Shown: positions 45,401 to 63,251, counted from the first letter of the stretch. The stretch: DNA of 64,000 nt from Planctomycetota bacterium (GCA_029936315.1 JAPYTD010000004.1:43153-107152), one strand, 5' to 3'. Numbers and translations are program-made. The notes: generated by a model not told the origin, from the letters alone.

Positions 45401-46077
45401 TCGAACGTGATCTGCGCTTCCTGCATCTGCGCGAACGTGAGGCCGTTCAAATGCGCGATGACGCCGAGCAGGTGCGGCGTAATGTTGCCGCCTTGCATGC
45501 CATCGTTGGGTGGTTACCGCCGCTACACTTGCAAAGCCAAGGCGAGCCCGACCGTGAACGCCGCCGCGCTGGCGAGTTGGCGGTAACCTGTGCATGGATC
45601 TCCAACAAGGATGATGTGCGCACGTTGATGTCTGCTGAGCGGTGGCGCATCGAAGTGATCCCCGCATTGCTGGATCTCGATAAGAAGCCGTCGTGGACGA
45701 ATCGCTTGTTGGGTGCCGTTGTTGGGGTGTTCGTCAAGCACCCGGTCGACCTCTGGTTCGAACGGCATGGTGGCGAACTGTCGAAGAAGGTGCGCGTCTC
45801 ATTGCGTGCGGGCTATTCGAGTAACTATCGCTTCACTCGCGACGTTGTCGATGCGTGGCACCGCTTGCCAGCCGACGCTACGCCAGCGGATCGGGCTATC
45901 GAAACCTTGCAGCATGTGTATCGACATGGCCCCGCAGTGCGTCGCGATATCCTGGCGCTACGCGCGGTGCAGTCGCTTGCCGTGCTCGATGTTCGCAACT
46001 ACCGCGACCTCGTGTTCCGCATTGGCGACTACGAGAGTGACGGCGAAGATCCCGAACTGGGCAGGGCCCTGCCGTGA
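42442..46077 (+). CDS. Large membrane protein with an ion-transport (voltage-sensor-like S1-S4) module and no pore
   Basis: S1 FVLLLVVLVTLVIE, S2 WVDAIACLFFIADFIFE, S3 DLVPAIP, S4 LRMLRLLR; a second TM hairpin near aa 545-600. Confidence 0.8.
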   Translation: MTQTPKVPDQTILRGLLQETATDPAAAARELSRERERLQADSDLGAELLGHEQRWLEGFLKTGSAELHADLLSVRRDWLALRIRHMAVAKVDPSLLLDLAEAQAMARVAKEAELEAQCREAIDRGVGTLSEKSVVGTAVAERFALLTTAIEELAIEQQVELMRCTGKLLGRMAEKTGSRRCLNLGKRLLRAADDRVLAGRLERRLGRRGVSVLETTNFVLLLVVLVTLVIEAVVDLTPTQAHVFRWVDAIACLFFIADFIFELALHPSRWSWFWRNALTDLVPAIPSVLFLWPTAAMGAATDNLLVLRMLRLLRVTWAARYVQALRPLLRAARLLLFLVRGLDGLASRFAQILNREFVFVPAAAEVNRSIEEDDLRDVLHASMRREHELVELLQRDERRAMLIERVSAAREAMGVLQPAELANTAHQPGARDVAIGDAIEFLWTLRTQDIGRYIKKGDVEALDRVVRVMSAMPVRWLPFVSRLAVHPLPSTPEERIVELGRRVADWVESWHGRMLFFADLHGIVTGPQILDRVASAIVKATQRPAVRLLLFGGVLLGFNQLLLGTWLGDKLGPILDSIVGLPLVLLGSFCLVFLALGHWLKRLAGQASDTYRLTSEAHFISQLERVQSRYEQEDIDFLSERVFGDPTNRRHAREMLVQQLRSARTGVPLGNDDVPNHVALECNHTALLYLHFLDGAPLHISDVKTTEQLLANQSLENLRREFLRISGREKRRLRKLKLDDGTLLRGPYLWFRFITESIAVESAKRITGYNNFCVPLAQRDYVDSVALENMERWLRRRRDPRGGRTSKDRKKDEVVTEYPTTEFTALDFLGGDPERDRHLAAVFGEDVLDVVQFDRRTMVREIFGTRPVNHLPKHERSFNPLRFYEKRLSHGRILLAPLLLVWRFFRTIGWVVGKVRLIVREVLDPEVAMQRREIGEAPFAVALRKIHRMKAPGLLEAIRMRLRIDPAYSGAPIGWTPDAAELQEPEIERDLRFLHLREREAVQMRDDAEQVRRNVAALHAIVGWLPPLHLQSQGEPDRERRRAGELAVTCAWISNKDDVRTLMSAERWRIEVIPALLDLDKKPSWTNRLLGAVVGVFVKHPVDLWFERHGGELSKKVRVSLRAGYSSNYRFTRDVVDAWHRLPADATPADRAIETLQHVYRHGPAVRRDILALRAVQSLAVLDVRNYRDLVFRIGDYESDGEDPELGRALP

Positions 46078-49592: not shown

Positions 49593-49612
49593 TGCCGTAC
49601 GAGCACTCTTAG
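49580..49612 (-). repeat. Dispersed repeat, copy D (internally deleted)
   Basis: CTAAGAGTGCTCGTACGG-C-ACTAACCTCTTCGG; 18 nt identical to copy E and 14 nt identical to copy A; overlaps both convergent stop codons. Confidence 0.75.
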
Positions 49613-50739
49613 TGGAGTTCGTAGCGGAGCCATCGGCACTCGATGGGGCCGTTGCGGACCGGGAACTTGCGGCTGGTTCGTAGGCCGAGGTAACGCGTTA
49701 GTTCTGGCGCGCCACAGAGTACGTGCGCTTGGGCTCCGTTGCATTGTTGGTGTAGGAAGTTGCCAAGCGATTGCCAGGAGTCGACCAGCGATGGGTCGTC
49801 GGGTTGCAGGCGTTCTCCATATGGCGGGTTGGTGACGACCATCGCTGGCTTGAACGGTGGCACGTAGTCGCGCGTATCGCCGAAGTTGAGTTCGATCTTG
49901 CCTCGTAGGCCGGCGCTCTTGATTGCGATCTTCGAGATCGCGATGGCGCCTTCGTGGTTGTCGTTGCCGGCGAGTCTTGGGCAGTGGTCTTGGCCGGCGG
50001 TGGCGCGCGCTTCGGCTTCATCAAATACAGACTGCCACGCGTTCTGATCGGTGTCCTTCCAGCGTTCGAACGCGAATGCACGACCTAGCCCCGGCGCGCG
50101 ATCCATCGCCAACCACGCCGCCTCGATCAGGAACGTGCTTGAGCCGCACATCGGGTCGACGAGCGGCGACTTCGGATCCCATTCACTGAGTTGGATCAAA
50201 CCGGCCGCCAGCGACTCGTTGAGCGGGCTCTTGTGTTGCACTTCGTGGTAGCCGCGCTTGTGCAGCGGCTCGCCACCGAGTTCGCGATAAAGGATCGCCT
50301 CATCGTTGTGCAGCACCAGCTTGATCGGCAGGTCCGGTCGATCGCGTTCGACGTTGGGGCGAATGCCATCGAAGTGGCGGAACTGGTCGCAGATCGCGTC
50401 CTTGGCGACGAGCACGGGGAAGCGGGTGTCGTTGGCCCAGCTGTCTCGCACCGAACCGTCAATTGCGAGTGTGCCCGTGGCGTCGATGAACAGCGACCAG
50501 TCGACTGTCGATGTCAGGTCGTAGAGCTCTTCGCGGTCGCGCGCTGGTCCGCGTACGAGCTCTTCTTGCACGCGAATGCCGGATCGCAGCCACAGGCACG
50601 CCTTGTAGGCGACGTCCGGTTCACTCGAGAACGCGCACGCCCCGCGCCGGATGTCGACGTTTCGGGCGCCGAGTTCGCGCAGTTCGTAGGCGAGTACCTC
50701 TTCGAGGCCGAGCGTGCAGGCGACGTAGTAGTTGCCCAA
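49609..50739 (-). CDS. THUMP-domain RNA methyltransferase (RlmL N-terminal-like)
   Basis: GLEEVL..EL, LHKRGY, PLNESLAA, DPMCGS.T.LIEAA, VTNPPYGER. Confidence 0.92.
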   Translation of the reverse strand: MGNYYVACTLGLEEVLAYELRELGARNVDIRRGACAFSSEPDVAYKACLWLRSGIRVQEELVRGPARDREELYDLTSTVDWSLFIDATGTLAIDGSVRDSWANDTRFPVLVAKDAICDQFRHFDGIRPNVERDRPDLPIKLVLHNDEAILYRELGGEPLHKRGYHEVQHKSPLNESLAAGLIQLSEWDPKSPLVDPMCGSSTFLIEAAWLAMDRAPGLGRAFAFERWKDTDQNAWQSVFDEAEARATAGQDHCPRLAGNDNHEGAIAISKIAIKSAGLRGKIELNFGDTRDYVPPFKPAMVVTNPPYGERLQPDDPSLVDSWQSLGNFLHQQCNGAQAHVLCGAPELTRYLGLRTSRKFPVRNGPIECRWLRYELH

Positions 50740-50740
50740 C

Positions 50741-52000
50741 TCAGGAGTCCTTTGGCGCCGGCCCGGCAGCCTTGGCGAAGTCGTCGGCGAAGCACGACAG
50801 CGCGCTGATCACCGGCGCGGCCGCCATTTCGATCAGCGAGCAGTCGCCCTTCTTGCGTGAGAACGTGGCGAGCTTGCTCATCTTCGCGTCGTAGCCCGGA
50901 CCCTTGCCAGCCTGCACGGCTTTGAGAATGTGCACGAACTGATTGGTCTCCATGCGGCACGGTGGGCATTTGCCGCACTGTTCCTTCATGAAGAACTCGG
51001 CGATCTCCAAGGTCAATGCCACGACGTCGGTGGTCTCATCGACAATGCGCACGCCGCCACAACCAGGCGAAGTGCCGAGTGGCTGCAGGGTCTCGTACGC
51101 GATCGGCACGTCGAGGTGGGCGCCATCGAGAAACGCCGCCGACATCGCTGGCAAGATTGCGCGAACCGTACGGCCATGCTTGAGTCCGCCACCGCAGCCT
51201 TCGATCAGTTCGCGGTAGGTTGCACCAAACGGCAGTTCGTAGACGCCGGGCTTCTCGACCTGATCGCCGAGTGTAAACAGCAGCGTGCCCTTGCTGTCTT
51301 CTGTTCCGATCGCTGCGAACGCCGCGCCACTGTTGCGCGCGATCCACGCGACGTGCGCCAGGGTCTCGGTGTTGTTGACCGTCGTCGGTTTGCCGAACAG
51401 TCCCGCTTCTCCTGGGAACGGCGGCTTCTTGCGCGGTTTGGCAGGTTCGCCTTCGATCGCGTTCAGTGCCGCGGTCTCTTCGCCGGCGACATAGGTCGTT
51501 GGGCCGCAGTGGATCGCAATCGGAAACGGCAGCAGTCCGGCTTCGTTCGCTTCACCCAGCGCCATCTCGGCGCTGGCACGCGGACCGCGCATATCTTCGA
51601 TCAGGTACAGGTAGCCCTTCGTCGCACCGGTCGCGAGCCCGGCCAGTGCGAGTCCTTCGACGACCGCATGTGGATGGTGTTCGACCAGGTAACGATCCTT
51701 GTTGCTGCCGGGTTCGTGTTCGCCGCCATTGGCCACGATGTACTTCTCGGTCCCCGCCGCATCCGCCGCCAACTGCCACTTCCGGATCGTCGGAAACGCG
51801 GCGCCACCGCGGCCGCGCAGTCCCGATGCGGCAACCTGATCGCGCAGCCACGCGGGGCCCTTTTCCTGGGCAATGGCCAACCCGTCGTAGCCACCGCGGG
51901 CGCGGTAGTCGGCGAGGCCTTCGGGTTCGTCGGAAGAACGGTTGGCAAGCAAGAGGGCGGGCGATGGCACGCAACGGATCCTATGGCCGTCGCCGTCCAT
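50741..52000 (-). CDS. Stand-alone NuoF-like flavoprotein (FMN, [4Fe-4S])
   Basis: SGLRGRGGAAFPT, EHEPGSNKD, YVAGEETA, GLFGKPT.VNN.ET, CGKCPPCR...C. Start at 52000 or 51970. Confidence 0.9.
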   Translation of the reverse strand: MDGDGHRIRCVPSPALLLANRSSDEPEGLADYRARGGYDGLAIAQEKGPAWLRDQVAASGLRGRGGAAFPTIRKWQLAADAAGTEKYIVANGGEHEPGSNKDRYLVEHHPHAVVEGLALAGLATGATKGYLYLIEDMRGPRASAEMALGEANEAGLLPFPIAIHCGPTTYVAGEETAALNAIEGEPAKPRKKPPFPGEAGLFGKPTTVNNTETLAHVAWIARNSGAAFAAIGTEDSKGTLLFTLGDQVEKPGVYELPFGATYRELIEGCGGGLKHGRTVRAILPAMSAAFLDGAHLDVPIAYETLQPLGTSPGCGGVRIVDETTDVVALTLEIAEFFMKEQCGKCPPCRMETNQFVHILKAVQAGKGPGYDAKMSKLATFSRKKGDCSLIEMAAAPVISALSCFADDFAKAAGPAPKDS

Positions 52001-52023
52001 ACGCGAGGTTGGGGCAACCCAGG

Positions 52024-52107
52024 GGCCACATGATCTATGTCGACCAGGAGGCGCATGAGCAGCTGGTTGCCGATCTGCGCACGTGGTTTGACCTGCGGCT
52101 TCGATAG
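52024..52107 (+). pseudogene. C-terminal stump resembling a serine carboxypeptidase (S10) end
   Basis: GHMIYVDQEAHEQLVADLRTWFDLRLR* resembles the GHM-x-Y catalytic His tail. Confidence 0.4.
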
Positions 52108-52118
52108 GGCGCGGCAAT

Positions 52119-52229
52119 CTAGTCGATAGTCAGCGGCTTCTCGCAATGCGGGCAGTGCGTCATCGTTTCCGGCACGCCGGTTGCGCGTTGACTGCGCGCT
52201 TGTTTGCGGGCGCGGCCGAGTTCCTCCAT
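52119..52229 (-). CDS. Small ORF (36 aa) with CPHC motif
   Basis: MEELGRARKQARSQRATGVPETMTHCPHCEKPLTID*; below the track cutoff; could be a stump. Confidence 0.35.
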   Translation of the reverse strand: MEELGRARKQARSQRATGVPETMTHCPHCEKPLTID

Positions 52230-52416
52230 GAACGCGCCGCCTTAGCAGAGCGCAGGGTCACGCCCGCATCCTACGCCGCGGAGCATTGTCATCGGTGTAA
52301 CAGAAACGGGGATCTGTGTTAGTCCGGTTGTCAGCACGCGAGGGCGGGGTCATGCTGTTGGGCCCAACGGCCACTACGTCGGTGCCCGTATGCCATCTTA
52401 TTCAGAGACACCAAAC

Positions 52417-53532
52417 ATGAGAATTGCTCTCGTCCTGGCAGGCTCCTTGTTGCTCGGCTCTGTGGCCGCACAAGAAACTGCTACTCCCAAACCCCAGGAA
52501 CCGGCGAAAGCCAGTGCCGCCGAGTGCATGCAGCAGATCCAAGACCTGCAGCAGAAGGCAATCACCGATTGGCGCGCCGACAGGAAGCAAGCGGCCGAAG
52601 CCGCGAAGGGCCCTGCCACTGGCAAGCCGGTCAAGGCGATGCGCATGCGTCCCGACTTCGGTCCGGTCACGAAGATGGCCACCCGGTTCGCGAAGCAGTT
52701 CGCCGGCAGCGATGATGCCGTGCCGTTCTTGATGATGGTCGTGCAGATGAGCCCTGACAAAACGGCGCAGAAAGCCAGCATCGAGGAGATGCTCAAGTCG
52801 CACATCGACAGCCCCGAGCTCGCGCAGATGGGTGGCATGCTTGAGTACCTGCCGCGCATGATCGACGAGGACTTTGCCAAGTCGACGACGAAGCGCATGC
52901 TCAGCAGCAAGAACGCGGACGTGCGCGGTTGGGCTCTCTACGCCACGCACAAGCCCGCGATCGAGAAGGCGGACCGTGAAGGCGAAGACTACGCTGCCGC
53001 CAAGAAGGCACTGCTCGCCGCATGCGAAGATGTCGAAGACCAGCGTCTCGCCAAGCAGATGCGCGGTGCGATCGATCTACGCGAGAAGTACGGCATCGGT
53101 TGCGTTGCCCCCGACATCGCCGGCATCGACCTCGACGGCGTCGAGTTCAAGCTGTCCGACTACAAGGGCAAGGTCATCTTCTTGGACTTCTGGGGCGATT
53201 GGTGAGGCCCATGCCGGGCCATGTACCCACACGAGCGGTCGCTCGTGGAAGAAATGAAGGACAAGCCATTTGCTCTGATTGGCGTCAACAGTGATCAAAC
53301 GATTGAGCGCGCCAAGAAGGCCATCGCCGACAACAACCTCAACTGGCGCAGCTTCCAGAACAAGGGGAACGACGGTGAGATCTCCAAGGATTGGGCTGTG
53401 CAGGGTTGGCCGACGGTGGTCATCCTCGATCGCGAGATGAAGATCCACTACCGCGGTCACGATGGCGAAGCGGCAACGAAGGTTGCGGAAGCACTCGTCG
53501 CCAAGATGACCGGCGGCCAAGAGAAGAAGTAG
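52417..53532 (+). CDS. Exported TlpA/thioredoxin-like selenoprotein (U-G-P-C)
   Basis: APDI.G.DLDG.EFKLSDYKGKVIFLDFWGDW-TGA(53203-05)-GPCRAMYPHE...IGVNSD...WAVQGWPT; joins two track ORFs in frame. Confidence 0.9.
53228..53248 (+). promoter_or_regulatory. Putative SECIS element of the TlpA-like gene
   Basis: CACGAGC-GGTC-GCTCGTG perfect 7-bp stem, loop 31 nt after UGA; a second hairpin GGCCC/GGGCC at 53206-53220. Confidence 0.65.
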
Positions 53533-53938
53533 CTGTTGCGGGTGCCCTTCGGCACCAGTCACCAGGCACCAAGCAACAACGACAGCGGCAAGCGCGGCGC
53601 CGGCAGCATTGGCTGCAGGACGTCGCGTTTGCATGTACGCCCGCTCAAGTTTTCTGAAGTGCCCCGGTTGCCGGGCGATGCGTTCGCATGGCTTTGAGAC
53701 CCTTGCGAGCATGCCGCTCCGCTACCTGTGGCTTGAGGACTTGCCCGAACTTCCCGAGGCATTGCGAACGGTTGTGTCCGGGGGCCTGCCCAGATTCGGC
53801 TCGCAGCCATGGTTGGCTGTGGGGCAACCCCCGAAACGGCGCCGAACCTGAGCAAGGTGCGTGCTCCCGCATATGCCACCCACTAAGATCTCTCGACCAA
53901 ACGCTCGCAGCCGCGCAGCACACACGTAGACAACTCCA

Positions 53939-55588
53939 ATGCAATTCACTCCCGTAATCCCATTTACCTTGGCGCTGTTGGCGCTCGGAACGAGTCTCCC
54001 CAAGTCAACGAACCGCCCCGACGAGGGCATGTGGCTGTTCAGCGCTTTGCCGCTGAAGATCCTGAAGGAGAAGTACGACTTCGAGCCCACCAAGAAGTGG
54101 CTCGATCACGTGCGTCTCGGCTCGGTGCGTTTTGACACCGGTGGCTCGGGTTCGTTTGTCTCGCCGAACGGGTTGGTCATGACCAACCACCACGTTGCGC
54201 TGTCGACTATCCAGAAGATCTCGACGCCCGAGAAGGATTGGGTCGAGCCGGGCTTCAGCTCGCGCATCTACGGCAGCGAAGTTCACGGTAAGGACCTGGT
54301 GCTGCGCCAGCTCATCGACGTCAAGGATGTCACGGCCGAGGTGCTCAAGGTCAAGGCCGATAAGGGCGACGTAGAAGAGAAGCTCACCGAACTCGCCGCC
54401 GCGCACTCCGACAAGGAGAAGCATCTCGATGCGCAGCCGGTGCCGCTCTACGACGGCAACCAGTACCACCTCTACATCTACCACGTCTACGACGACGTGC
54501 GTCTCGTCTTTGCACCGGCCAAGCAGGTCGCGTTCTACGGTGGCGACTACGACAACTTCACCTACCCGCGCTGGTGTCTCGATTTCGCGTTCTTCCGCGT
54601 CTACGAAGATGACAAGCCGATCGACTCGTCGAAGTGGTTCTTCAAGTTCGAGCCGAAGGGTGCCAAGACGGATGATCTGGTGTTCGTGTCGGGCCACCCG
54701 GGCGGCACCGAGCGTTCGTTGACCTACGAAGAGATGGTCATGCACCGCGATTTGTGGGTGCCCGAAGTCGTCAAACTGCTGACCAACAACTGCAAGATCA
54801 TCAAGCAGCGCATGGAGCAGAGCGAAGAAGCCGCGTTCCGCCTGCGCGATCAGTACTTTGGCCAGATGAACAGCCTCAAGGCCTTCACCGGTCACCTGAA
54901 CGGTTTACTCGACGAGAAGCGCATGGACATCGTCAAGGCTCGCGACGCGGCCCTGGTCGAAAAGTCTGGCAAGGAAGAGACCAAGGCGGCCTTCGCCGAG
55001 ATCGCCAAGAAGATGGAAGCGCTCCTAGCCGAGGACCTCGGGAAGTCCGACTTCCGCAAGATGCGTGGTGCCATGGCCAAGGCTACCGAGGCCTGCTCGG
55101 ACGCCAAGACGACCATCAACGACGCGCGCTTCGAGGCCTACGGTGCCGCCAACTACCCGGACGCGACGTTCACGCTGCGCCTGACCTACGGCACGGTGAA
55201 GGGCTACGAGGCTGGCACCACCAAGGTCGCGCCGAAGACGACCGTGCACGGCCTGTACGAGCGCAACGCCGCCTTCGACAACGAGCATCCGTTCGATCTG
55301 CCGAAGCAGTGGCTTGACGCCAAGGGCAAGCTTGACTGGAACACGCCGTACAACTTCGTTTGCACGTGCGACATCATTGGCGGCAACTCGGGCAGTCCGA
55401 TCCTTGATCGAGACGCCAACGTCGTTGGCCTGGTCTTCGATGGCAACATCGAGTCGCTGCCGGGCAACTACTGGTTCGACGAAGAAGTCAACCGCACAGT
55501 CGGCGTGCACACGGGCATCATTGTCGAGTCCCTAGCCAAGGTTTACGAAGAGAAGGGTCTCGTCAAAGAGTTGATGGGCACCAAGTAA
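53939..55588 (+). CDS. S46 family dipeptidyl peptidase (short form)
   Basis: DEGMW, GGSGSFVS, TNHH, DNF.YPR..LDF.FFR, YPDA.FTLRL.YG, DIIGGNSGSP. Confidence 0.93.
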   Translation: MQFTPVIPFTLALLALGTSLPKSTNRPDEGMWLFSALPLKILKEKYDFEPTKKWLDHVRLGSVRFDTGGSGSFVSPNGLVMTNHHVALSTIQKISTPEKDWVEPGFSSRIYGSEVHGKDLVLRQLIDVKDVTAEVLKVKADKGDVEEKLTELAAAHSDKEKHLDAQPVPLYDGNQYHLYIYHVYDDVRLVFAPAKQVAFYGGDYDNFTYPRWCLDFAFFRVYEDDKPIDSSKWFFKFEPKGAKTDDLVFVSGHPGGTERSLTYEEMVMHRDLWVPEVVKLLTNNCKIIKQRMEQSEEAAFRLRDQYFGQMNSLKAFTGHLNGLLDEKRMDIVKARDAALVEKSGKEETKAAFAEIAKKMEALLAEDLGKSDFRKMRGAMAKATEACSDAKTTINDARFEAYGAANYPDATFTLRLTYGTVKGYEAGTTKVAPKTTVHGLYERNAAFDNEHPFDLPKQWLDAKGKLDWNTPYNFVCTCDIIGGNSGSPILDRDANVVGLVFDGNIESLPGNYWFDEEVNRTVGVHTGIIVESLAKVYEEKGLVKELMGTK

Positions 55589-55740
55589 GCTCGGCTTGCT
55601 TGAGAGGACTGGAGGCGGTCGCCGGGCGTAGAAGGCTCGCACCGCCGCAACACGCAGTGGCATTCGAAATCGACGTGCTGGCAGGGGGAGTCACCTCTGT
55701 GCTGACTGCAACGCAAGATACAAAACTGAAGGTACAGAAT

Positions 55741-56922
55741 ATGGCAATCGAAGTGAAGCAGGGCGTGGTGATGGCGTCGTCGTTGACGTTGGCGGTCGTG
55801 GCGGGAGTGATTACTTGGCAGACGATGACGCAAACGGAGACGGCGAATGCTGGGCAGACCGTGACGCTGAATGCCGACGCAGAGGGCGATCAGTTGCTCG
55901 CGGCGGAGAACAGCGACCTGCGCGATCGCATCGCAACATTGGAACAAGAGAACCGGGCGTTGCGCGGTGGCGTTGAGCGGCAGCAGGCGCCGACGGTCAA
56001 CCCAGAAACCGTCGCCGACGAGCCGCCGCCAGCAGTTGGCATGGCGTTCTCCGATCCGCGCTTTGCCGATGTCTTGTCGAAAATCGACTGGGCCAAGATG
56101 GGCGAGATTACGCATGAGATGAGTCCGGTGCTGGCCGAACTCGTGGCGGCGATGACCGAGGAAGGCGCGGAGATTCCGATGGAGTTGGCCATCAAGGTGC
56201 AGCAGCTCAACTCGCAACTGCTTGGGATGATCCCGGCCTTGATGGAGGCGGGCGTGCCAGGCTTTGGCGCCAACGGCAGCTACACGCATCCGCTGGTGGT
56301 CGCCAATACGGTGGCCAATACGCTGCAGGCAGCCGGCCAGGCAATGACGGCGGATCAGAAGAGCCGGTTGTCGAGCCTCGTAGGCATGTTCTCCGCCGAG
56401 GCACAATCGATCGCAGATTCGACCCACGACTTGACGCTCGATCAGTTGCTGGCCGATAGCGAGATGAAGGAGCGCTTCTTCAATGAGATGAAGGGCTCTT
56501 TGACGGCCGATCAGAGTAGCGCCCTCTACCCGGCTGGCAGCACCGACTACGAAGGTGGCAGCTTGTTCCATTCGGGTGTGATGATGCGTCCCTACATGAA
56601 GCCGATTGCCGTCAAGAACGCGGCGGAGTTTGCCAGCAAGGTGTCGAGCAACCTCAGCGACAAGCTTGGCCTCAGTGACGCGACGGCGAAGCGGGTTCAC
56701 GACATCATCGCCCGCGCCAGTCAGGCAGCAGAACTCTGGCAGCACCCCGCCGAGACGGCCGAGATGTCGCAGGCGCACTTCATCCGTTCGGGTCGCAGCA
56801 TGGCCGCGCTGCGCAACCAGGTGATCTGGATGCGGCAGATCCGCCAGCTACCCGGCCTGACCGCCGAGCAACGCAAGAAGCTTGGCGAGTTTTCACGCAT
56901 CCTGGTGCCGCTGCCGCTGTAG
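55741..56922 (+). CDS. Hypothetical membrane-anchored helical protein with coiled coil
   Basis: N-terminal TM, then a heptad segment LRDRIATLEQENRAL; no family recognised. Confidence 0.7.
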   Translation: MAIEVKQGVVMASSLTLAVVAGVITWQTMTQTETANAGQTVTLNADAEGDQLLAAENSDLRDRIATLEQENRALRGGVERQQAPTVNPETVADEPPPAVGMAFSDPRFADVLSKIDWAKMGEITHEMSPVLAELVAAMTEEGAEIPMELAIKVQQLNSQLLGMIPALMEAGVPGFGANGSYTHPLVVANTVANTLQAAGQAMTADQKSRLSSLVGMFSAEAQSIADSTHDLTLDQLLADSEMKERFFNEMKGSLTADQSSALYPAGSTDYEGGSLFHSGVMMRPYMKPIAVKNAAEFASKVSSNLSDKLGLSDATAKRVHDIIARASQAAELWQHPAETAEMSQAHFIRSGRSMAALRNQVIWMRQIRQLPGLTAEQRKKLGEFSRILVPLPL

Positions 56923-56946
56923 TTGCGGCAGCAGTCGCCAGCGACG

Positions 56947-57033
56947 CTACGGCGTCAGTGTGACCCAGTTGACGCTGCGGTTCGACGTGACGAAGTTCGT
57001 GAAGGTCGCGTCGACCGTGATGCTGTCGCCAAA
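56947..57033 (-). pseudogene. Orphan C-terminal stump
   Basis: FGDSITVDATFTNFVTSNRSVNWVTLTP* with high GC3 and no start. Confidence 0.3.
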
Positions 57034-57095
57034 GCGAGCGTTGGGGCGGCGCGGGACATTACGGACATCGCAGCCCAATCGGCAGATTCGCGTCC

Positions 57096-58268
57096 GTGCA
57101 GCATCAAGATCTGTGGGCTACGCTGGCCAACGTGAGTAGCGAACAGCGTTCGGGGTTGCGTCGGTGGTTGGTGGCAGGGTCCCTCGCGGTGATCCTGCTC
57201 AGCCTGACGCTGCCTGCAACATGGGTGGAAGCTGCGTATTGCCGCGGCGTGTTTCCATGGATTCAGTCGGTGATGGTGCCGGTCTCCGGTGCCATCGATT
57301 GGCCGTTGATGGGCACCGTGCTCGTGTTGCTGTCGGTGGTGATGCCCGTGCTCGTGTGGCGACGCTGGCGGCGAGGTCGCGCAGCAGGCCGCAAGAGAAC
57401 GACGCTTTGGCTTGCCGGTGGTCTGCGCACGTTGCGAACCGCCATCTATGTCTACGCCACGTTCGTGGCCCTGTGGGGCCTCGGCTACCACCGCATCCCG
57501 ATCGAAGATCGTTGGCAGTTGATCCAAGGTGAACTCGAGTACGGCGACGTGCGTGACGTGCAGTTGCGCTTGTTGGCGATCCTGCATCGCGACGCGTCGG
57601 CGCCATCGACTCCCGTGCATGAAGCTCGGGCGTGGCAAGCGATCGCCGAGGCAGAGCGCAAGATGGTGATCGAGTTGGAGGGGTGGTCACCGTCCTTGCC
57701 GGCCCACATCAAACATCCGCCCGAAGGCAGCTTGATGGCGATCGGTATCTACGGCGTGGTCTCACCGTTTACGATGGAGGCCAACGTCGACCCAGCGCTG
57801 CCGATGCCGATGCGTCTGGCCATCAGTGGCCACGAGTTGGCCCACATCCTCGGCTACTGCGGGGAAGCCGATGCGAATCTCGTGAGCTTTCTAGCTGGTT
57901 TGCGTGCTGAGGATCCATTGGCTCGCTACGGCACCGCGCTGTCGATGATCCGCTACGCCAGTTCGTGGCGACACTTCAAGGATTCGATGTGGCTGAATGA
58001 CAATCTGCCCCAGCGCGCCAAGGATGACCTCGCGGAGTTGCGCAAGATCCGCAAGAAGCACACCGTCGCGATCGCATCCAGGATTATGACGGCGATGAAT
58101 GACACCTATCTCAAGGCACAGGATGTGTCGTTGGGCACCGACGACTACGAACGCGGCTTCACGCTGTTCGTGCACGCGTTCAAGCGCGGGATGGTTGTGA
58201 TGCCGGAGCCTTTCGCGATGCTCCGAGAGCCAGCAGGGGAGAAAGGCGGCGGGGGCGAGGACAAGTAG
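57096..58268 (+). CDS. DUF3810-like membrane protein with HExxH motif
   Basis: LWGLGY.R.P, G..SPFT.EANV, HELAH..G...EADAN..S.LA. Confidence 0.8.
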   Translation: MQHQDLWATLANVSSEQRSGLRRWLVAGSLAVILLSLTLPATWVEAAYCRGVFPWIQSVMVPVSGAIDWPLMGTVLVLLSVVMPVLVWRRWRRGRAAGRKRTTLWLAGGLRTLRTAIYVYATFVALWGLGYHRIPIEDRWQLIQGELEYGDVRDVQLRLLAILHRDASAPSTPVHEARAWQAIAEAERKMVIELEGWSPSLPAHIKHPPEGSLMAIGIYGVVSPFTMEANVDPALPMPMRLAISGHELAHILGYCGEADANLVSFLAGLRAEDPLARYGTALSMIRYASSWRHFKDSMWLNDNLPQRAKDDLAELRKIRKKHTVAIASRIMTAMNDTYLKAQDVSLGTDDYERGFTLFVHAFKRGMVVMPEPFAMLREPAGEKGGGGEDK

Positions 58269-58294
58269 TTGTCCTCGATTCGTTGCTCACTGTC

Positions 58295-58630
58295 CTAGTA
58301 AGGGCTGTCGAGCATGTCCCAGATGATCTGTTCGACATCCGGTTCACACTTACCCGTCAGCCGCGCAACCGGCTCGCCCTCGCCCTTGATGTGACTTGCG
58401 ATCTCCGCCAAGTCGGCTTCGGTTACTTCACTGTAGAAGACCCTGTCGGGATACAGCGTGACGTTGATGCCCTGCTCGCAGGCGCCGAAGCACGGGTAGC
58501 GGCGGATCTTGATGCGCTCCTCGCCAGGATCGAATTCCTTGACGAGGTCGCGCAGCTTATCGAACAAATCGCCACTGCCCCGTTCGGTGCAGTCGCCGCC
58601 TTCGCAGACGTAACAGAGTCGGTTGGTCAT
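58295..58630 (-). CDS. Thioredoxin-like [2Fe-2S] ferredoxin (NuoE C-terminal type)
   Basis: YVCEGGDC...G...CFGACEQG.NV..YPD..FY..V. Confidence 0.88.
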   Translation of the reverse strand: MTNRLCYVCEGGDCTERGSGDLFDKLRDLVKEFDPGEERIKIRRYPCFGACEQGINVTLYPDRVFYSEVTEADLAEIASHIKGEGEPVARLTGKCEPDVEQIIWDMLDSPY

Positions 58631-58716
58631 CAGGCTAAGGTGTTTGCATGGCAGTCAGACTGGCCAGCTTCGCGAACGCGAAGCTCAGGATCGCCATAGA
58701 CGGCCAGCGGTTCAAG

Positions 58717-58730
58717 ACATCCGCGGATGT
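58717..58730 (-). terminator. Palindromic hairpin just downstream of boxB (possible terminator or processing site)
   Basis: ACATCCGCGGATGT perfect palindrome; only a weak U-tract. Confidence 0.3.
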
Positions 58731-58757
58731 TGCTTTAGCGCGTTGTAGCGAGCCGGA

Positions 58758-60176
58758 CTAGTGGAACTGCACGTATTCGAAGTCGATCGGCTGGTCGTTC
58801 GGGCCCTTCTGTGGCGGCGCGATGTAGTTCGCGAACTTGCCGGGCTCGGTGACCTTGACCATGCACGAAGTCACATACTCGCGGTCGGCCGCGGTCGGCA
58901 ACCAAGTCGTGTGCATCTTGGTCCAGGTCGCTTCGTCGATGATCTCGCCTTCCGGGTTGAACTTGTAGCCAGCGCAGACGCCCTGGTTGCGGTTGAACTT
59001 CCGGTTGGGCAGCTTGATCACTTGGTCGATGCCTAGCTTCTTCAGTTCGCGGTTCCAACGGCTGACGATGCGCGTGCAATCAGCGATGTAGGCGTCTTGT
59101 AGGACCGAGTTCATCGCGCGGCGAAGCGGGATCTCCTTGGTCTCAACCTTGCCGTCATCGGTTGGCACTTCGAGTTTGTAGCCAATGTTGAGCGCCTTCG
59201 GATCCTTGTAGATGCCATCGCTCTCGCGGTAGCGCCCCTTCAGGCCCGTGGCGAAGGCTTCGGCCGCGTTGGTTGAGTCTTCGCCTCCGAACAGGTCCAT
59301 CGAGCCGGTGAACCAGAAGTTCACGTAGCGTTGGATGATCTCAAGCGGGATGGCGCCGACCGTCTTCGGGTCCTTGCCTTCGGCCATCAGTTCGCCGGTG
59401 CGCTTGATGATGCGGCCGACGCCGTTCTCACCGGTTTGCAGGTGGTAGGCCTCTTCGGCGAGCATGAACTGCGTCGTGCGCGCGAGCGGGTCAAAGCTCG
59501 ATTCGGCGAGCGATGCCAACTGATACTTGCCGTCACGATCCATGAAGGCCGTGAAGCAGAAGAAGTCGAGCCAGTTGTCGACCGGGTAGTTGAACGCCTC
59601 GAGGATGCGCGGGTTGTCTTCGTCACCACTGTGACGCTCAAGCAGTGCTTCGGCTTCGTCGCGGCCGTCGGCGCCGAAGTGCGTTTGCAGCAGGTAGACC
59701 ATCGCCCACAGGTGCCGCCCTTCCTCGACGTTGACTTGGAATAACGAGCGCAGGTCGTAGAGCGACGGGCAGCAGTGGCCGAGCATGCGTTGCTGCTCAA
59801 CCGACGCCGGCTCGGTGTCACCTTGCGTCACGATCAGGCGGCGTAGGCGGTTGCGGTGCTCACCGGGCACGTCTTGCCAGCAAGTCTCGCCGATGTTGTC
59901 ACCGAAGTGGATCTTGCGATCGCTCGGGCCTTCCGCGAGGAAGATGCCCCAGCGGTAGTCCGGCATCTTCACGTAGTCGAAGTGTGCCCAGCCACCTTGG
60001 CCGACACCGATCGCGGTGCGCAGGTAGATGTCGTGTTGGTTGAAGTCCGACGGGCCGATGTTCTGCCACCATTCGAGGAACTTCGGTTGCCACTTTTCGA
60101 GCGCCATAGTCAGGCGCTTGTTATCGCGGAGTCCAACGTTGTTGGGGATCTTGGCTTCGAGGTCGACGTTGCTCAT
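58758..60176 (-). CDS. boxB: Benzoyl-CoA 2,3-epoxidase subunit B
   Basis: IPNNV.L, ALEKWQP, VKMPDYRWGI, QGDTEPASVEQQ, EEGRHLWAM, DRDGKYQL, EEAYH, DLFG.E.STNA; 472 aa. Confidence 0.95.
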   Translation of the reverse strand: MSNVDLEAKIPNNVGLRDNKRLTMALEKWQPKFLEWWQNIGPSDFNQHDIYLRTAIGVGQGGWAHFDYVKMPDYRWGIFLAEGPSDRKIHFGDNIGETCWQDVPGEHRNRLRRLIVTQGDTEPASVEQQRMLGHCCPSLYDLRSLFQVNVEEGRHLWAMVYLLQTHFGADGRDEAEALLERHSGDEDNPRILEAFNYPVDNWLDFFCFTAFMDRDGKYQLASLAESSFDPLARTTQFMLAEEAYHLQTGENGVGRIIKRTGELMAEGKDPKTVGAIPLEIIQRYVNFWFTGSMDLFGGEDSTNAAEAFATGLKGRYRESDGIYKDPKALNIGYKLEVPTDDGKVETKEIPLRRAMNSVLQDAYIADCTRIVSRWNRELKKLGIDQVIKLPNRKFNRNQGVCAGYKFNPEGEIIDEATWTKMHTTWLPTAADREYVTSCMVKVTEPGKFANYIAPPQKGPNDQPIDFEYVQFH

Positions 60177-60180
60177 GGTG

Positions 60181-61803
60181 TTAAGTCCTTCTCCAGTCGA
60201 ACTGGGCACCCTCTGGTGCGCCGTAGCGTGACAGTGCACCGGTCTCGCCGGTGGCATTCGGGCGAATGAAGATCCAGTTCTGCCACGCACTGAGGCGGCC
60301 GAAGATCTTGCTGTCGCAGTTCTCGGCGCCGCCAAAGCGCAGCGACGCTTCCATGCCCGTGAGGGCGTCGGGAGACATCGAGACGCGTTCTTCGAGCGCG
60401 ATGCGCAGGTCGTCTTCCCAGTCGACCGGGTCCAGCAAGTAGGTGCACATGCCCTGTTCTTCGATCTCCGGCGCGATCATCGTTGGCGTTTCCTTGGCGA
60501 GCTTTTCGGCTTGCTCCGGCGTCGCGAGGAAGCGGTTGTGCAGGCGAGTGAGGCCGTGGCTCATCGGCAGTGCGCCGTCGCTGAGCGGGCCGACGATCAT
60601 CTCGGTCTTGTCGCCATCGTAGGCGTAGATGCGATCGCTCGACATCGACAGCTCGAGGAACGCGCCGGCGGCGCATGCCTCTTCATCGACCAGCGCGTAA
60701 GTCGAACGGGCCATCAGGTCGAAGCGGCGGCAAACGCGCGCCATCAGCAGGATGATCTCGTTGCAGAGCCAGTGGTCCTTGTTGGCGACCAGGTCCTTCT
60801 CGACCTGAATCAGTGCGTCGCGGTTGCCGCGCGTCTGCAGCACGACCATGCCGCACTCTTCGTGGTCGAAGCGCAGTTGCAGCAGCGCGTCGTCGAGTTC
60901 GCGCCAAGCCTTGATTGCCCAGGTGTTGCAGCCTGCGGCTTCGTAAGCCTCGCCGTGCTTCGGTTGATCGCCCTCGGGTCCCTTGATGGTGATCGTCGCG
61001 ACGCGCTTCTCGTCTTCGATGACTACTTGCACGTGCTCGTAGGAGTAACCGGTGTCGGTCCTTTCGGCGTTGATCGCATCGAGCGTGATGCCGTTGCCCG
61101 TTGGCCGCTTCGACTCGGCCGCCAACTCCTTGGCGCGCGTTTCGATCGCCGCATGGAACTTCGACTTCGGCCAGATGGCGTCGACGAAGTTCCACTTGAG
61201 CGCCTTCTTGCCGCGCAGACCTTCGGCCATCGTGCAGAACACGTCGGCGAGGTCGCGGCGCACCTTGCGCTTGTCGACGATGCGGGTCAGGCCACCGGTG
61301 CCGGGCAGCACGCCGAGCAGTGGCACTTCCGGCAGCGACACGGCCGAGTTGTTGTCGTTGACGAGGTGGATCTCATCGCACGCGAGCGCGAGTTCGTAGC
61401 CACCGCCAGCGCACGCCGCGTTGATTGCGCAGATCGACTTGACGCCTGAGTTGCGACTGTAGTCCTCAAGGCTGAGACGCGTTTCGTTCGTGAACTTGCA
61501 GAAGTTCACTTTGAACGGATGCGTGCTGCTCTTCAGCATCAGGATGTTCGCGCCGGCGCAGAAGGCTCGTTCTTGGCCACTGCCCACGACCAACGTCTTC
61601 ACCGACGGGTGCTCAAACCGCAGCCGCGAAACGGCGTCGGCGAGCTCCATGTCGACCCCGAGGTCGTAGCTGTTGAGCTTGAGTTCGTAGCCTTCCTTGA
61701 AGGGGAAGTCGGAGTTGACGTTCATGCGCAGGTGCGCGATGTCGCCATCGATTTGCAGCTCCCAGTGGTGGTAGCTGTCCGGGTGTCGGTTGAAGTCGGT
61801 CAT
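60181..61803 (-). CDS. boxC: 2,3-epoxybenzoyl-CoA dihydrolase
   Basis: Y.LKLNSYDLGVD.ELADA, FCAGANI, FCKFTNETR, GGGYELALACD, SLPEVPLL.VLPGTGG, SPDALTGMEA, LSAWQNWIF.RPNA, FDW.R. Confidence 0.95.
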   Translation of the reverse strand: MTDFNRHPDSYHHWELQIDGDIAHLRMNVNSDFPFKEGYELKLNSYDLGVDMELADAVSRLRFEHPSVKTLVVGSGQERAFCAGANILMLKSSTHPFKVNFCKFTNETRLSLEDYSRNSGVKSICAINAACAGGGYELALACDEIHLVNDNNSAVSLPEVPLLGVLPGTGGLTRIVDKRKVRRDLADVFCTMAEGLRGKKALKWNFVDAIWPKSKFHAAIETRAKELAAESKRPTGNGITLDAINAERTDTGYSYEHVQVVIEDEKRVATITIKGPEGDQPKHGEAYEAAGCNTWAIKAWRELDDALLQLRFDHEECGMVVLQTRGNRDALIQVEKDLVANKDHWLCNEIILLMARVCRRFDLMARSTYALVDEEACAAGAFLELSMSSDRIYAYDGDKTEMIVGPLSDGALPMSHGLTRLHNRFLATPEQAEKLAKETPTMIAPEIEEQGMCTYLLDPVDWEDDLRIALEERVSMSPDALTGMEASLRFGGAENCDSKIFGRLSAWQNWIFIRPNATGETGALSRYGAPEGAQFDWRRT

Positions 61804-61906
61804 GCAGGTGGCGAATCAGAAAGCCTCAGTCGAAGGGCGAACAGTGTTGTGTTCGCTGCAATCGCGAGCAAGCAAGATATCGCACACTCCTGGCGGATAG
61901 TCAGGC

Positions 61907-61937
61907 AATATAATGCATGCCCAATAGAATGCATGCC
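61907..61937 (-). promoter_or_regulatory. Putative boxC promoter/operator with TGCA-containing direct repeats
   Basis: AATGCATGCC at 61912 and 61928 (16-nt period) abutting a TATATT -10-like hexamer on the minus strand. Confidence 0.5.
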
Positions 61938-62006: not shown

Positions 62007-63251
62007 TCAGATTGCGCGCGCAGCGACGTAGTTCCAGCTGGTCCCCGCACCGAACGCAAGCAGGAGCACATTGTGGCCGCGCTCAAGAGGCGCGACGACA
62101 ACTCGCTCGCTGCCCTTGACCAAGCGGCCCTCGCCATCGCGCTTGCCGACCGTCTCGTAGCTGGCGCTGCCTTGAAGGATGCGATCGAGCGCGATGCCAA
62201 CGCTTGCCGCCGAAGTGTTGCCGTGCTCTTGCAGCGTCAGGGCCATACGGTCGTAGGGGATGTGCAGTTGGTCGGCTAATTCTTGGACGAGCGCCATGTT
62301 GGCGCCGTGCGGCACGAACCGATCGATGCGGCTGCCGATCGCCATGCGCAGTTTGAGCGACGACTTGCGACCTTGTGCCGTCACTTGTGCGAACTCGTCA
62401 TCCGACACGAGACCGGCACGGTGCAGTGCCTCAAAGAACCCAGCACCTGGCACCACGCGACGCACGAAACGATAGACCTGTCGCCCAATCATCTGGAAGT
62501 GTTGGTTGGCACCGCCTTGTTGCGGATCGCGTAGACGTTCATACAGCGACTCGCGTGTCACACGCCCGGTCAGGGTTGCGGCATGTTCCATGTGTTGCTG
62601 CGGGTGGTTGCGAGTATCCAGCCCGCTGAACTGGTAGATCGACTCCCGGTCCGGCACGGTCTTCATGAACGAACCAAGGATCTCGAGGCTGGGCGTCTCG
62701 CGGCTGGTGTCCGGCTTGCGACTCGTGATGATGCACGCGGAGGCGCCGTCGCCGAGCAGCATGCAGTTGCGGTCGGTCCAGTCGACCATGCGGGTTGGCA
62801 CGTCGGCACCGATCACCAGCACCTGTTCACAGTTGCCGGACTTCACCATCGAAGCGGCCAGGATGATACTCGCCACGAGGCTTGCGCAGCCCTGCTGCAC
62901 ATCGAGGGACGTGGAATGCGGCATCGCATGACCGTGCTTCGCCAGTTCGCCTTGAATGATTGCTGCGCCAGCTGGATATGCGAACTGCGAAGTGTTGGTC
63001 GCCAGGATCACCATGTCGGTGTCCGTAGCGGCGACGTCGGCGCGTTCGAGCGCCTGGCATGCGGCGCGAAGGCCTAGGTCGGTCACGTGTTCATCGGCTT
63101 GTGCGACGTGACGCGAATCGATGCCCGTGTGTTCGCGAATCCACTCGGGGCTGGCATCCAGCCACGGCATTCCTGACACGAGCTGTTCGTTGGATAGCAC
63201 CTGCGCCGGCAGTGCAGTGCCGAAGGAGGTGATATAGACAGGGCGCGACAT
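62007..63251 (-). CDS. 3-oxoacyl-ACP synthase III (FabH-like) family protein
   Basis: WIREHTGI.SR, DVQQGCAS (Cys), LLGDGASA, FVPHGAN (His), HGNTSAASV (Asn), AFGAG.SW; 414 aa with inserts. Confidence 0.9.
   Translation of the reverse strand: MSRPVYITSFGTALPAQVLSNEQLVSGMPWLDASPEWIREHTGIDSRHVAQADEHVTDLGLRAACQALERADVAATDTDMVILATNTSQFAYPAGAAIIQGELAKHGHAMPHSTSLDVQQGCASLVASIILAASMVKSGNCEQVLVIGADVPTRMVDWTDRNCMLLGDGASACIITSRKPDTSRETPSLEILGSFMKTVPDRESIYQFSGLDTRNHPQQHMEHAATLTGRVTRESLYERLRDPQQGGANQHFQMIGRQVYRFVRRVVPGAGFFEALHRAGLVSDDEFAQVTAQGRKSSLKLRMAIGSRIDRFVPHGANMALVQELADQLHIPYDRMALTLQEHGNTSAASVGIALDRILQGSASYETVGKRDGEGRLVKGSERVVVAPLERGHNVLLLAFGAGTSWNYVAARAI

Follow-up and report, generated by a model that had tools for sequence, protein, structure and literature searches.

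The stretch of DNA described here, called the window throughout, comprises 64,000 nucleotides from a Planctomycetota bacterium (GCA_029936315.1, JAPYTD010000004.1:43153-107152). Its minus strand carries boxC and boxB, followed by the gene for a thioredoxin-like ferredoxin (fdx) and, farther downstream, by the gene for a NuoF-like flavoprotein. BoxB is the oxygenase component of benzoyl-coenzyme A (benzoyl-CoA) epoxidase, and the two downstream genes are candidates for the reductase that BoxA usually provides. A first-pass annotation made from the sequence alone had named these four genes and proposed an electron chain that runs from NAD(P)H through the NuoF-like protein and the ferredoxin to BoxB. 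The relevant features, in window coordinates, are listed below.

61903-61937, minus strand: candidate BoxR operator 5' of boxC, recognised by its repeats and a conserved box
60181-61803, minus strand: boxC, 2,3-epoxybenzoyl-CoA dihydrolase, 540 aa, from TIGR03222 and the match to Mycetohabitans BoxC
58758-60176, minus strand: boxB, di-iron benzoyl-CoA 2,3-epoxidase oxygenase component, 472 aa, from TIGR03225 and the match to 3PER
58631-58757, minus strand: spacer of 127 nt between boxB and the ferredoxin gene, with an 8-bp GC stem and a UUCG loop
58295-58630, minus strand: fdx, BoxB-linked thioredoxin-like [2Fe-2S] ferredoxin, 111 aa, from its cysteines, profile, fold and synteny
52390-58268, plus strand: four genes between fdx and the nuoF-like gene, encoding an unknown protein of 271 aa, a peptidase S46, an unknown protein of 440 aa and a DUF3810 protein, from Pfam and third-position GC
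50741-52000, minus strand: stand-alone NuoF-like flavin mononucleotide (FMN)/[4Fe-4S] flavoprotein, 419 aa, the proposed NAD(P)H-oxidising reductase, from Pfam domains and motifs

All four minus-strand genes lie at the sites first assigned to them, with two changes of start codon. The boxB start initially placed at 60335 is wrong, and translation begins instead at the ATG at 60176, 10 nt past the boxC stop. The nuoF-like start at 52117 belongs to an upstream TTG extension, and orthologues begin near the ATG at 52000. The nuoF-like gene does stand alone, 6.2 kb from fdx, and no nuoE- or nuoG-like genes are seen nearby. As the first-pass annotation had also warned, unrelated genes intervene. They are the four plus-strand genes, whose third-position GC content is 0.77-0.85 on that strand; this block is missing from the compact operons of relatives and is outside the system. 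The hairpins reported between boxB and fdx are borne out as a structure, since the 8-bp stem and its UUCG loop are present, but there is no T tract. A terminator scan of this spacer calls none, and its folding z-score of -1.2 relative to shuffled sequences indicates no extra stability.

BoxB and BoxC were identified by profile and by alignment. BoxB scores 665.3 bits against TIGR03225 (curated cut-off 499.1) over profile positions 1-471, and phmmer aligns it end to end with the solved BoxB of A. evansii (3per_A, E 2.4e-172). Residues E120, E150, H153, D211, E240 and H243, counted in the alignment with 3PER numbering, are all identical, and these six we take to be the di-iron ligands. The protein is 57% identical to Mycetohabitans BoxB and also gives a weak match to PaaA. 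Its presumed substrate, benzoyl-CoA, is suggested indirectly by the adjoining boxC, by a BoxR-like regulator in the genome and by the BoxR-type operator. BoxC scores 711.0 bits against TIGR03222, just 1.3 below the cut-off of 712.3, over positions 2-547 of 548, and along its entire length shares 50% identity with an annotated BoxC, that of Mycetohabitans.

The ferredoxin carries its cysteines as C9-x4-C14 and C47-x3-C51, and all four are invariant among 15 orthologues. It scores 20.6 bits against PF01257, below the gathering cut-off of 24.8, because the N-terminal half of this NuoE-based model is missing from the protein, which covers profile positions 68-144 of 145. When an fdx profile is compared to solved structures, the best match is the N-terminal domain of HydB (7q4v_B residues 8-95, E 2.5e-14), Aquifex Fd4 ranks second, and NuoE chains reach E 3e-4. 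The ranking by fold agrees with the ranking by profile. An AlphaFold2 model of fdx with a predicted local distance difference test (pLDDT) score of 84 recovers 1m2a, 1f37, 7q4v_B and 5abr at the top of a Foldseek search, each with probability 1.00; formate dehydrogenase beta subunits are also weakly recovered. The original 'NuoE-like' label is apt only in part: fdx consists of the thioredoxin-like domain alone and is closer to the HydB N-terminal domain and Aquifex Fd4 than to NuoE. Assignment of fdx as NuoE was rejected: it has 111 aa, lacks the N-terminal helical domain, does not sit beside nuoG, and matches NuoE no better than stated above. The true NuoE-type proteins of the same genome are 154 and 192 aa long, with scores of 164 and 137 bits.

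The NuoF-like protein contains Complex1_51K (PF01512), SLBB (PF10531) and NADH_4Fe-4S (PF10589) domains, which pass their cut-offs with 122, 28.6 and 59 bits. It conserves the FMN motif GRGGAAFP, the GEE motif, and the cysteines of cluster N3 (E. coli 351, 354, 357 and 398). The second glutamate of GEE is presumably E. coli E183, a residue at which substitution enables complex I to accept NADPH; the conserved motif hints that NADH may be the nucleotide used. Classification as NuoF proper was rejected, as the protein reaches 333.7 bits against TIGR01959 (cut-off 558.65) and has no nuo neighbours. Two other NuoF paralogues, 37-38% identical to it, are found on other contigs of the genome in nuoEFG and fdsGBA-like clusters. 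Each of them is accompanied by a full-length NuoE and by a NuoG or FdhA-like partner, and the box-linked copy is thus the unpaired one.

BoxA, the usual reductase of BoxB, has a flavin adenine dinucleotide (FAD)-binding ferredoxin-NADP reductase (FNR) domain and two [4Fe-4S] clusters and is NADPH-specific, according in part to a review (PMC4498308). Neither fdx nor the NuoF-like protein has a domain in common with it. A search for BoxA was made in the genome itself (5 Mb, 92% complete), in an order-level set of 61 genomes (this one and 60 relatives) and in a phylum-level set of 301 genomes across Planctomycetota (this one and 300 others). The absence of boxA noted at the outset for the window extends to the whole genome, where the best TIGR03224 match, at 45 bits, is far below the cut-off of 459, and where canonical BoxA as a tblastn query finds just a 52-bit FNR-like match. 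No BoxA above cut-off occurs in any of the 61 order-level genomes, 48 of which have BoxB above cut-off, or in any of the 301 phylum-level genomes, which include 94 with BoxB. A canonical boxA elsewhere had been named as one of the findings that would count against the proposal, and none reaches the cut-off in any of these sets. The same search gives 682 bits for a positive control, plasmid pBRH01 of Mycetohabitans. The 45-bit match is a generic 408-aa protein with Fer2, FAD_binding_6 and NAD_binding_1 domains on contig C144. Its gene adjoins one for a pseudouridine synthase and is kept across the order with or without boxB (genome G057, for example, has no boxB).

The ferredoxin gene is tightly linked to boxB. 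A profile search of the genome collection yields 80 species-level fdx loci, and in 79 of these boxC, boxB and fdx are colinear; the last is cut by a contig edge. The fdx family is found only beside boxB. The linked ferredoxins are 60-96% identical, and in 78 relatives the spacer between boxB and fdx measures -2 to 270 nt (median 70). By source name the carriers are uncultured Planctomycetota represented by metagenome-assembled genomes (MAGs). Contigs L067, L068, L075 and L099, with a planctomycete-type boxC-boxB-fdx arrangement, are labelled Gordonia sp., Candidatus Kuenenia stuttgartiensis, Luminiphilus sp. and Candidatus Marinacidobacterales, probably through mis-binning or mislabelling of MAG contigs.

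The nuoF-like gene follows the same distribution. Orthologues, with scores of 403 bits or more and identities of 49% or more, are readily separated from complex-I- and Fds-type paralogues, which score at most 300 bits. At the order level they are present in 39 of 43 fdx-positive genomes and in one of 18 fdx-negative genomes (G024, which is 69% complete), and at the phylum level the corresponding counts are 7 of 8 and 0 of 293. The expectation that both genes would track boxB is thereby upheld. Lineages that lost boxB have lost fdx and the nuoF-like gene too, and a genome with a different boxCB-aldehyde dehydrogenase cluster (G027) carries neither. Wherever it shares a contig with fdx, the nuoF-like gene lies downstream on the same strand. 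It directly follows fdx with spacers of 13-90 nt in six genomes (G019, G023, G042, G055, G059 and G083) and does so as well in two metagenome contigs with an orthologue of 48% identity (L122 and L124). Twelve relatives, among them five adjacent cases, keep the two genes within 4.3 kb of each other, and in the genus represented by the window the distance is 4-30 kb.

The canonical gene order in Mycetohabitans is boxR-boxC-boxB-boxA, and the compact planctomycete order is boxR-like / boxC-boxB-fdx-nuoF. As judged by gene order, the putative reductase pair fills the genomic slot that boxA holds in Burkholderiales. The ancestral layout is boxR / boxC-boxB-fdx-nuoF, and in the genus of the window an insertion of unrelated genes separates nuoF from fdx. 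In a BoxB tree, all 70 fdx-linked BoxB proteins fall in one clade with a Shimodaira-Hasegawa-like approximate likelihood ratio test (SH-aLRT) value of 99. The reconstructed history of the module is one of a single gain, long retention and coordinated losses. All-against-all clustering of open reading frames from 81 loci, which is blurred by shadow frames in this high-GC DNA, reveals no conserved neighbours beyond boxC, boxB, fdx and nuoF.

Several observations indicate that the two proteins belong together. For the NuoF-like protein, the best matches are to the core (residues ~106-510) of HydB/NfnB/HoxF-type chains, which are largely those that fdx also matches. Since fdx corresponds to HydB residues 8-95, the gene pair is colinear with a HydB-type protein minus its C-terminal ferredoxin domain. 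Among 1.84 billion representatives searched, the nearest outgroups of the NuoF-like protein are 47-49% identical. In one of them (L133:6596-12125, 49%), a homologous ferredoxin of 126 aa (E 1e-12) is encoded 25 nt upstream of the NuoF-like gene. This pair adjoins genes for a molybdopterin oxidoreductase of 802 aa, a 4Fe-4S protein and a regulator of the Crp family; TctABC and TauE transporters are encoded close by, and the locus may encode an uncharacterised NAD-linked molybdoenzyme. In another outgroup (L131:982-2583, 47%), the called gene apparently joins a ferredoxin-like N-terminus to a NuoF core. From this comparative evidence, fdx and the NuoF-like protein are predicted to be one module. 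Because the module exists outside the box context, it looks portable.

The pair resembles several known systems without being identical to any of them. Its best solved relatives are largely the same HydB, HoxF and NfnB chains (7q4v_B, 7t2r_B, 9n5u_B and 8oh5_B). However, the planctomycete pair is split into two genes and lacks the C-terminal 2x[4Fe-4S] domain. It also has no HydA/HydC, NuoG or hydrogenase partner, and nothing suggests electron bifurcation. With NuoE-NuoF (Nqo2-Nqo1) the pair shares fold families, the FMN motif, the GEE motif and the N3 cysteines. In contrast to complex I, the ferredoxin has no NuoE N-terminal helical domain, the flavoprotein falls below the NuoF equivalog cut-off, and a separate, true nuoEFG is present. 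The free ferredoxins Aquifex aeolicus Fd4 (1f37/1m2a) and Azotobacter vinelandii FeSI (5abr) have the same size and fold as fdx, with template modelling (TM) scores of 0.65-0.75 and 27-32% identity. Unlike these proteins, fdx has a first cysteine pair of the form CX4C, as in HydB and NuoE; the first pair of Fd4 is spaced wider.

Regulatory sequences and the remaining pathway genes have also been considered. Upstream of boxC are two GGCATGCATT repeats 16 nt apart, the second of which opens a ATGCATTATATTGCCT box. The tandem ATGCAT-N10-ATGCAT arrangement is unique in the 5-Mb genome. The box, which lies ~100 nt upstream of boxC, is conserved in the form aTGCAyTATAnTGCAT among close relatives. 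The BoxR consensus of Betaproteobacteria is ATGCACTATAGTGCAT (PMC6449761). Because the planctomycete box nearly equals this betaproteobacterial consensus, operator recognition seems, at the level of sequence, to be conserved between the two groups. More broadly, 48 of 68 loci have a TGCA-N6-TGCA sequence, one mismatch being allowed, upstream of boxC, compared to a background of 11%.

A regulator with the architecture of BoxR/BzdR, in which an XRE helix-turn-helix (HTH) is joined to a shikimate-kinase-like domain, is encoded divergently to boxC in more distant relatives. The genome of the window has such a BoxR-like gene (HTH_3 and SKI domains, C78:119092-119844), which shares 34% identity with the regulator encoded in the Mycetohabitans cluster and is not beside boxC. 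A BoxD-like aldehyde dehydrogenase (C126:36682-38199) is 52% identical to the enzyme of the boxCB-aldehyde dehydrogenase cluster. Both genes are on other contigs, amid unrelated genes. The locus invites comparison with the BoxABC system of Aromatoleum (Azoarcus) evansii and Burkholderiales, which has similar BoxB and BoxC proteins, the order regulator-boxC-boxB-reductase, and a BoxR-type regulator with a near-identical operator. Unlike in that system, the planctomycete reductase would be a NuoF-type FMN/[4Fe-4S] flavoprotein with a [2Fe-2S] thioredoxin-like ferredoxin rather than BoxA. Also unlike BoxABC, the boxR, boxD-like and nuoF genes of this genome are scattered, and it has no benzoate-CoA ligase at cut-off. 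PaaABCDE, which is likewise a di-iron acyl-CoA epoxidase, and other soluble di-iron multicomponent oxygenases resemble the proposed system in having a separate NAD(P)H-dependent chain. Oxygenases of these kinds are supplied by FNR-type reductases and by ferredoxins of the plant or Rieske type (PaaE, MmoC), and we know of no soluble di-iron oxygenase that is served by a complex-I-type flavoprotein.

These observations can be assembled into a chain of electron transfer whose direction and partners we infer. The NuoF-like flavoprotein would oxidise NAD(P)H at its FMN, and single electrons would pass through the N3-type [4Fe-4S] cluster to the 111-aa ferredoxin. The latter, probably a small dissociable carrier, would reduce the di-iron centre of BoxB. 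BoxB would then epoxidise benzoyl-CoA with O2, and BoxC would open the ring. The cofactor ligands are intact in BoxB, fdx and the NuoF-like protein. The chain first proposed for this locus appears well supported by comparative genomics because BoxA is absent, because fdx and nuoF are linked to boxB, and because the pair looks like one module. We estimate at roughly two in three the probability that a two-protein diaphorase, composed of the NuoF-like protein and fdx, has replaced BoxA as the reductase of BoxB. A broader proposal has odds somewhat better than even. It holds that the split-HydB NuoF-type pair is a physiological, probably NADH-dependent reductase of a soluble di-iron oxygenase and a portable cassette, which serves BoxB here and a molybdoenzyme in the outgroup. 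As a corollary, aerobic benzoyl-CoA degradation would proceed without BoxA in the whole phylum, and most of its lineages would use another donor.

Several points weigh against replacement of BoxA by the pair. About 86 of the 94 boxB-positive genomes in the phylum-level set have neither BoxA nor the fdx/NuoF module, and therefore some other donor can serve BoxB. In the window, the nuoF-like gene and fdx are kept apart by 6.2 kb and by four genes on the opposite strand. Upstream of 16 displaced nuoF-like genes, a BoxR-type box has no exact match and one near match, which is not beyond background, and co-regulation with boxC is therefore unsupported. Because the module was gained once, its co-occurrence counts cannot be treated as independent. 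The N-terminal domain of NuoE, which presumably makes up a large share of the NuoF interface in complex I, is missing from the ferredoxin. Finally, no benzoate-CoA ligase in the genome passes the cut-off, the best match scoring 197 bits against 375.

An unlikely alternative is that fdx alone serves BoxB and is fed by a housekeeping reductase such as the Fer2-FAD-NAD protein on contig C144, with the NuoF-like gene being an unrelated frequent neighbour. The combination of Fer2, FAD_binding_6 and NAD_binding_1 is the usual oxygenase-reductase architecture and is kept across the order. Moreover, the distance of 4-30 kb between fdx and nuoF in this genus, where nuoF has no BoxR-type box, and the fact that most boxB-positive Planctomycetota do without the module also speak for it. 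However, the Fer2-FNR gene occurs regardless of boxB, as in G057, and sits beside a pseudouridine synthase gene. The NuoF-like orthologues are confined to genomes with fdx, except for the incomplete G024, and abut fdx in several families; the pair is also kept, or fused, in outgroups. Less probable still is that BoxB needs no dedicated reductase in this lineage and that the fdx-NuoF pair is protective, assembly-related or regulatory, for instance by keeping the di-iron site reduced, repairing it, or sensing redox state. In favour of this proposal, box clusters with no reductase are the majority in the phylum. Yet no variation is seen in the four cluster cysteines of fdx, in the FMN motif or in those of N3, which fits a working electron-transfer chain, and repair or reactivation would still mean reducing BoxB.

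The ring-opening reaction of BoxC releases formate, and fdx with the NuoF-like protein might instead be the diaphorase of an NAD-linked formate dehydrogenase that oxidises it. In Azoarcus, COG1894 (NuoF-type) and the COG3383 formate dehydrogenase (FdhBA) are listed as likely members of the BoxR regulon (PMC6449761). The 4Fe-4S protein and molybdopterin oxidoreductase beside the nearest outgroup module, and the weak Foldseek matches to formate dehydrogenase beta subunits, also point this way. This is nonetheless the least probable of the alternatives. No molybdopterin, NuoG or FdhA-like gene occurs in the sequenced flanks (up to 8 kb per side) of ~110 box loci. The sole FdhA-like gene of the genome has its own NuoE- and NuoF-like partners on contig C55, and in relatives a trio of this type occurs independently of boxB or fdx status. 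In addition, Azoarcus has boxA as well, which is absent here.

Replacement of BoxA by the fdx-NuoF pair would be confined to part of the phylum, and other box clusters are organised differently. Box clusters without BoxA or the module, exemplified by L026-L032, have the arrangement boxR / boxC-boxB and no reductase nearby. A BoxD-like aldehyde dehydrogenase gene follows boxC-boxB in at least G027 and G051. When the fdx-less clusters of families f9 and f10 and of genomes G027 and G041 were inspected for a reductase, only boxR, aldehyde dehydrogenase and unrelated genes were found. The fdx/NuoF module is one lineage's solution and not that of the whole phylum. Short BoxB-like genes, with reading frames of ~400-430 aa that score 170-200 bits against TIGR03225, are present in family f62 and in several other families of Planctomycetota. 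Weak ferredoxin-like matches in these short-BoxB genomes sit on other contigs.

Some other features of the window and of the order were recorded. A gene for an RlmL/THUMP-type RNA methyltransferase (49609-50739, minus strand) starts 2 nt inside the nuoF-like stop codon. Because a gene of this type lies behind nuoF in ~14 close relatives, the displaced nuoF-like gene in the genus of the window is probably the first gene of an operon that includes a housekeeping gene. A gene for a FabH-like 3-ketoacyl-ACP synthase III (KAS III) of 414 aa (62007-63251, minus strand) lies immediately upstream of the boxC promoter, and its proximity to boxC is not kept in relatives. The match to a FabH model of 322 positions covers residues 5-360, and a related FabH model matches as two stretches, a pattern that suggests an insertion in this protein. 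The plus strand at 42442-46077 contains an open reading frame of 1211 aa with no Pfam match. Many FdhA-like genes of the order carry one in-frame TGA, as fits selenocysteine-containing formate dehydrogenases.

A full-text literature search found no description of an fdx/NuoF-BoxB module or of box genes in Planctomycetota. To our knowledge, BoxAB is the only benzoyl-CoA epoxidase described biochemically, and the protein proposed here would be the first NuoF-type oxygenase reductase. Supply of BoxB by a ferredoxin and a NuoF-type flavoprotein would constitute a variant of the known BoxAB/BoxC system. A missing boxA has been taken as an impediment to degradation by the box route (survey PMC10803450), and annotation pipelines and pathway surveys count its absence as an incomplete pathway. 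In Planctomycetota, boxCB without boxA is found phylum-wide, and one large uncultured lineage has a dedicated two-gene candidate reductase instead. If the proposed function is correct, the criteria by which aerobic degradation of aromatic acids is called in metagenomes would have to change, and the catalogue of electron-transfer partners for di-iron oxygenases would become wider. The pair would also offer a compact, possibly NADH-linked reductase that is usable with BoxB-type epoxidases.

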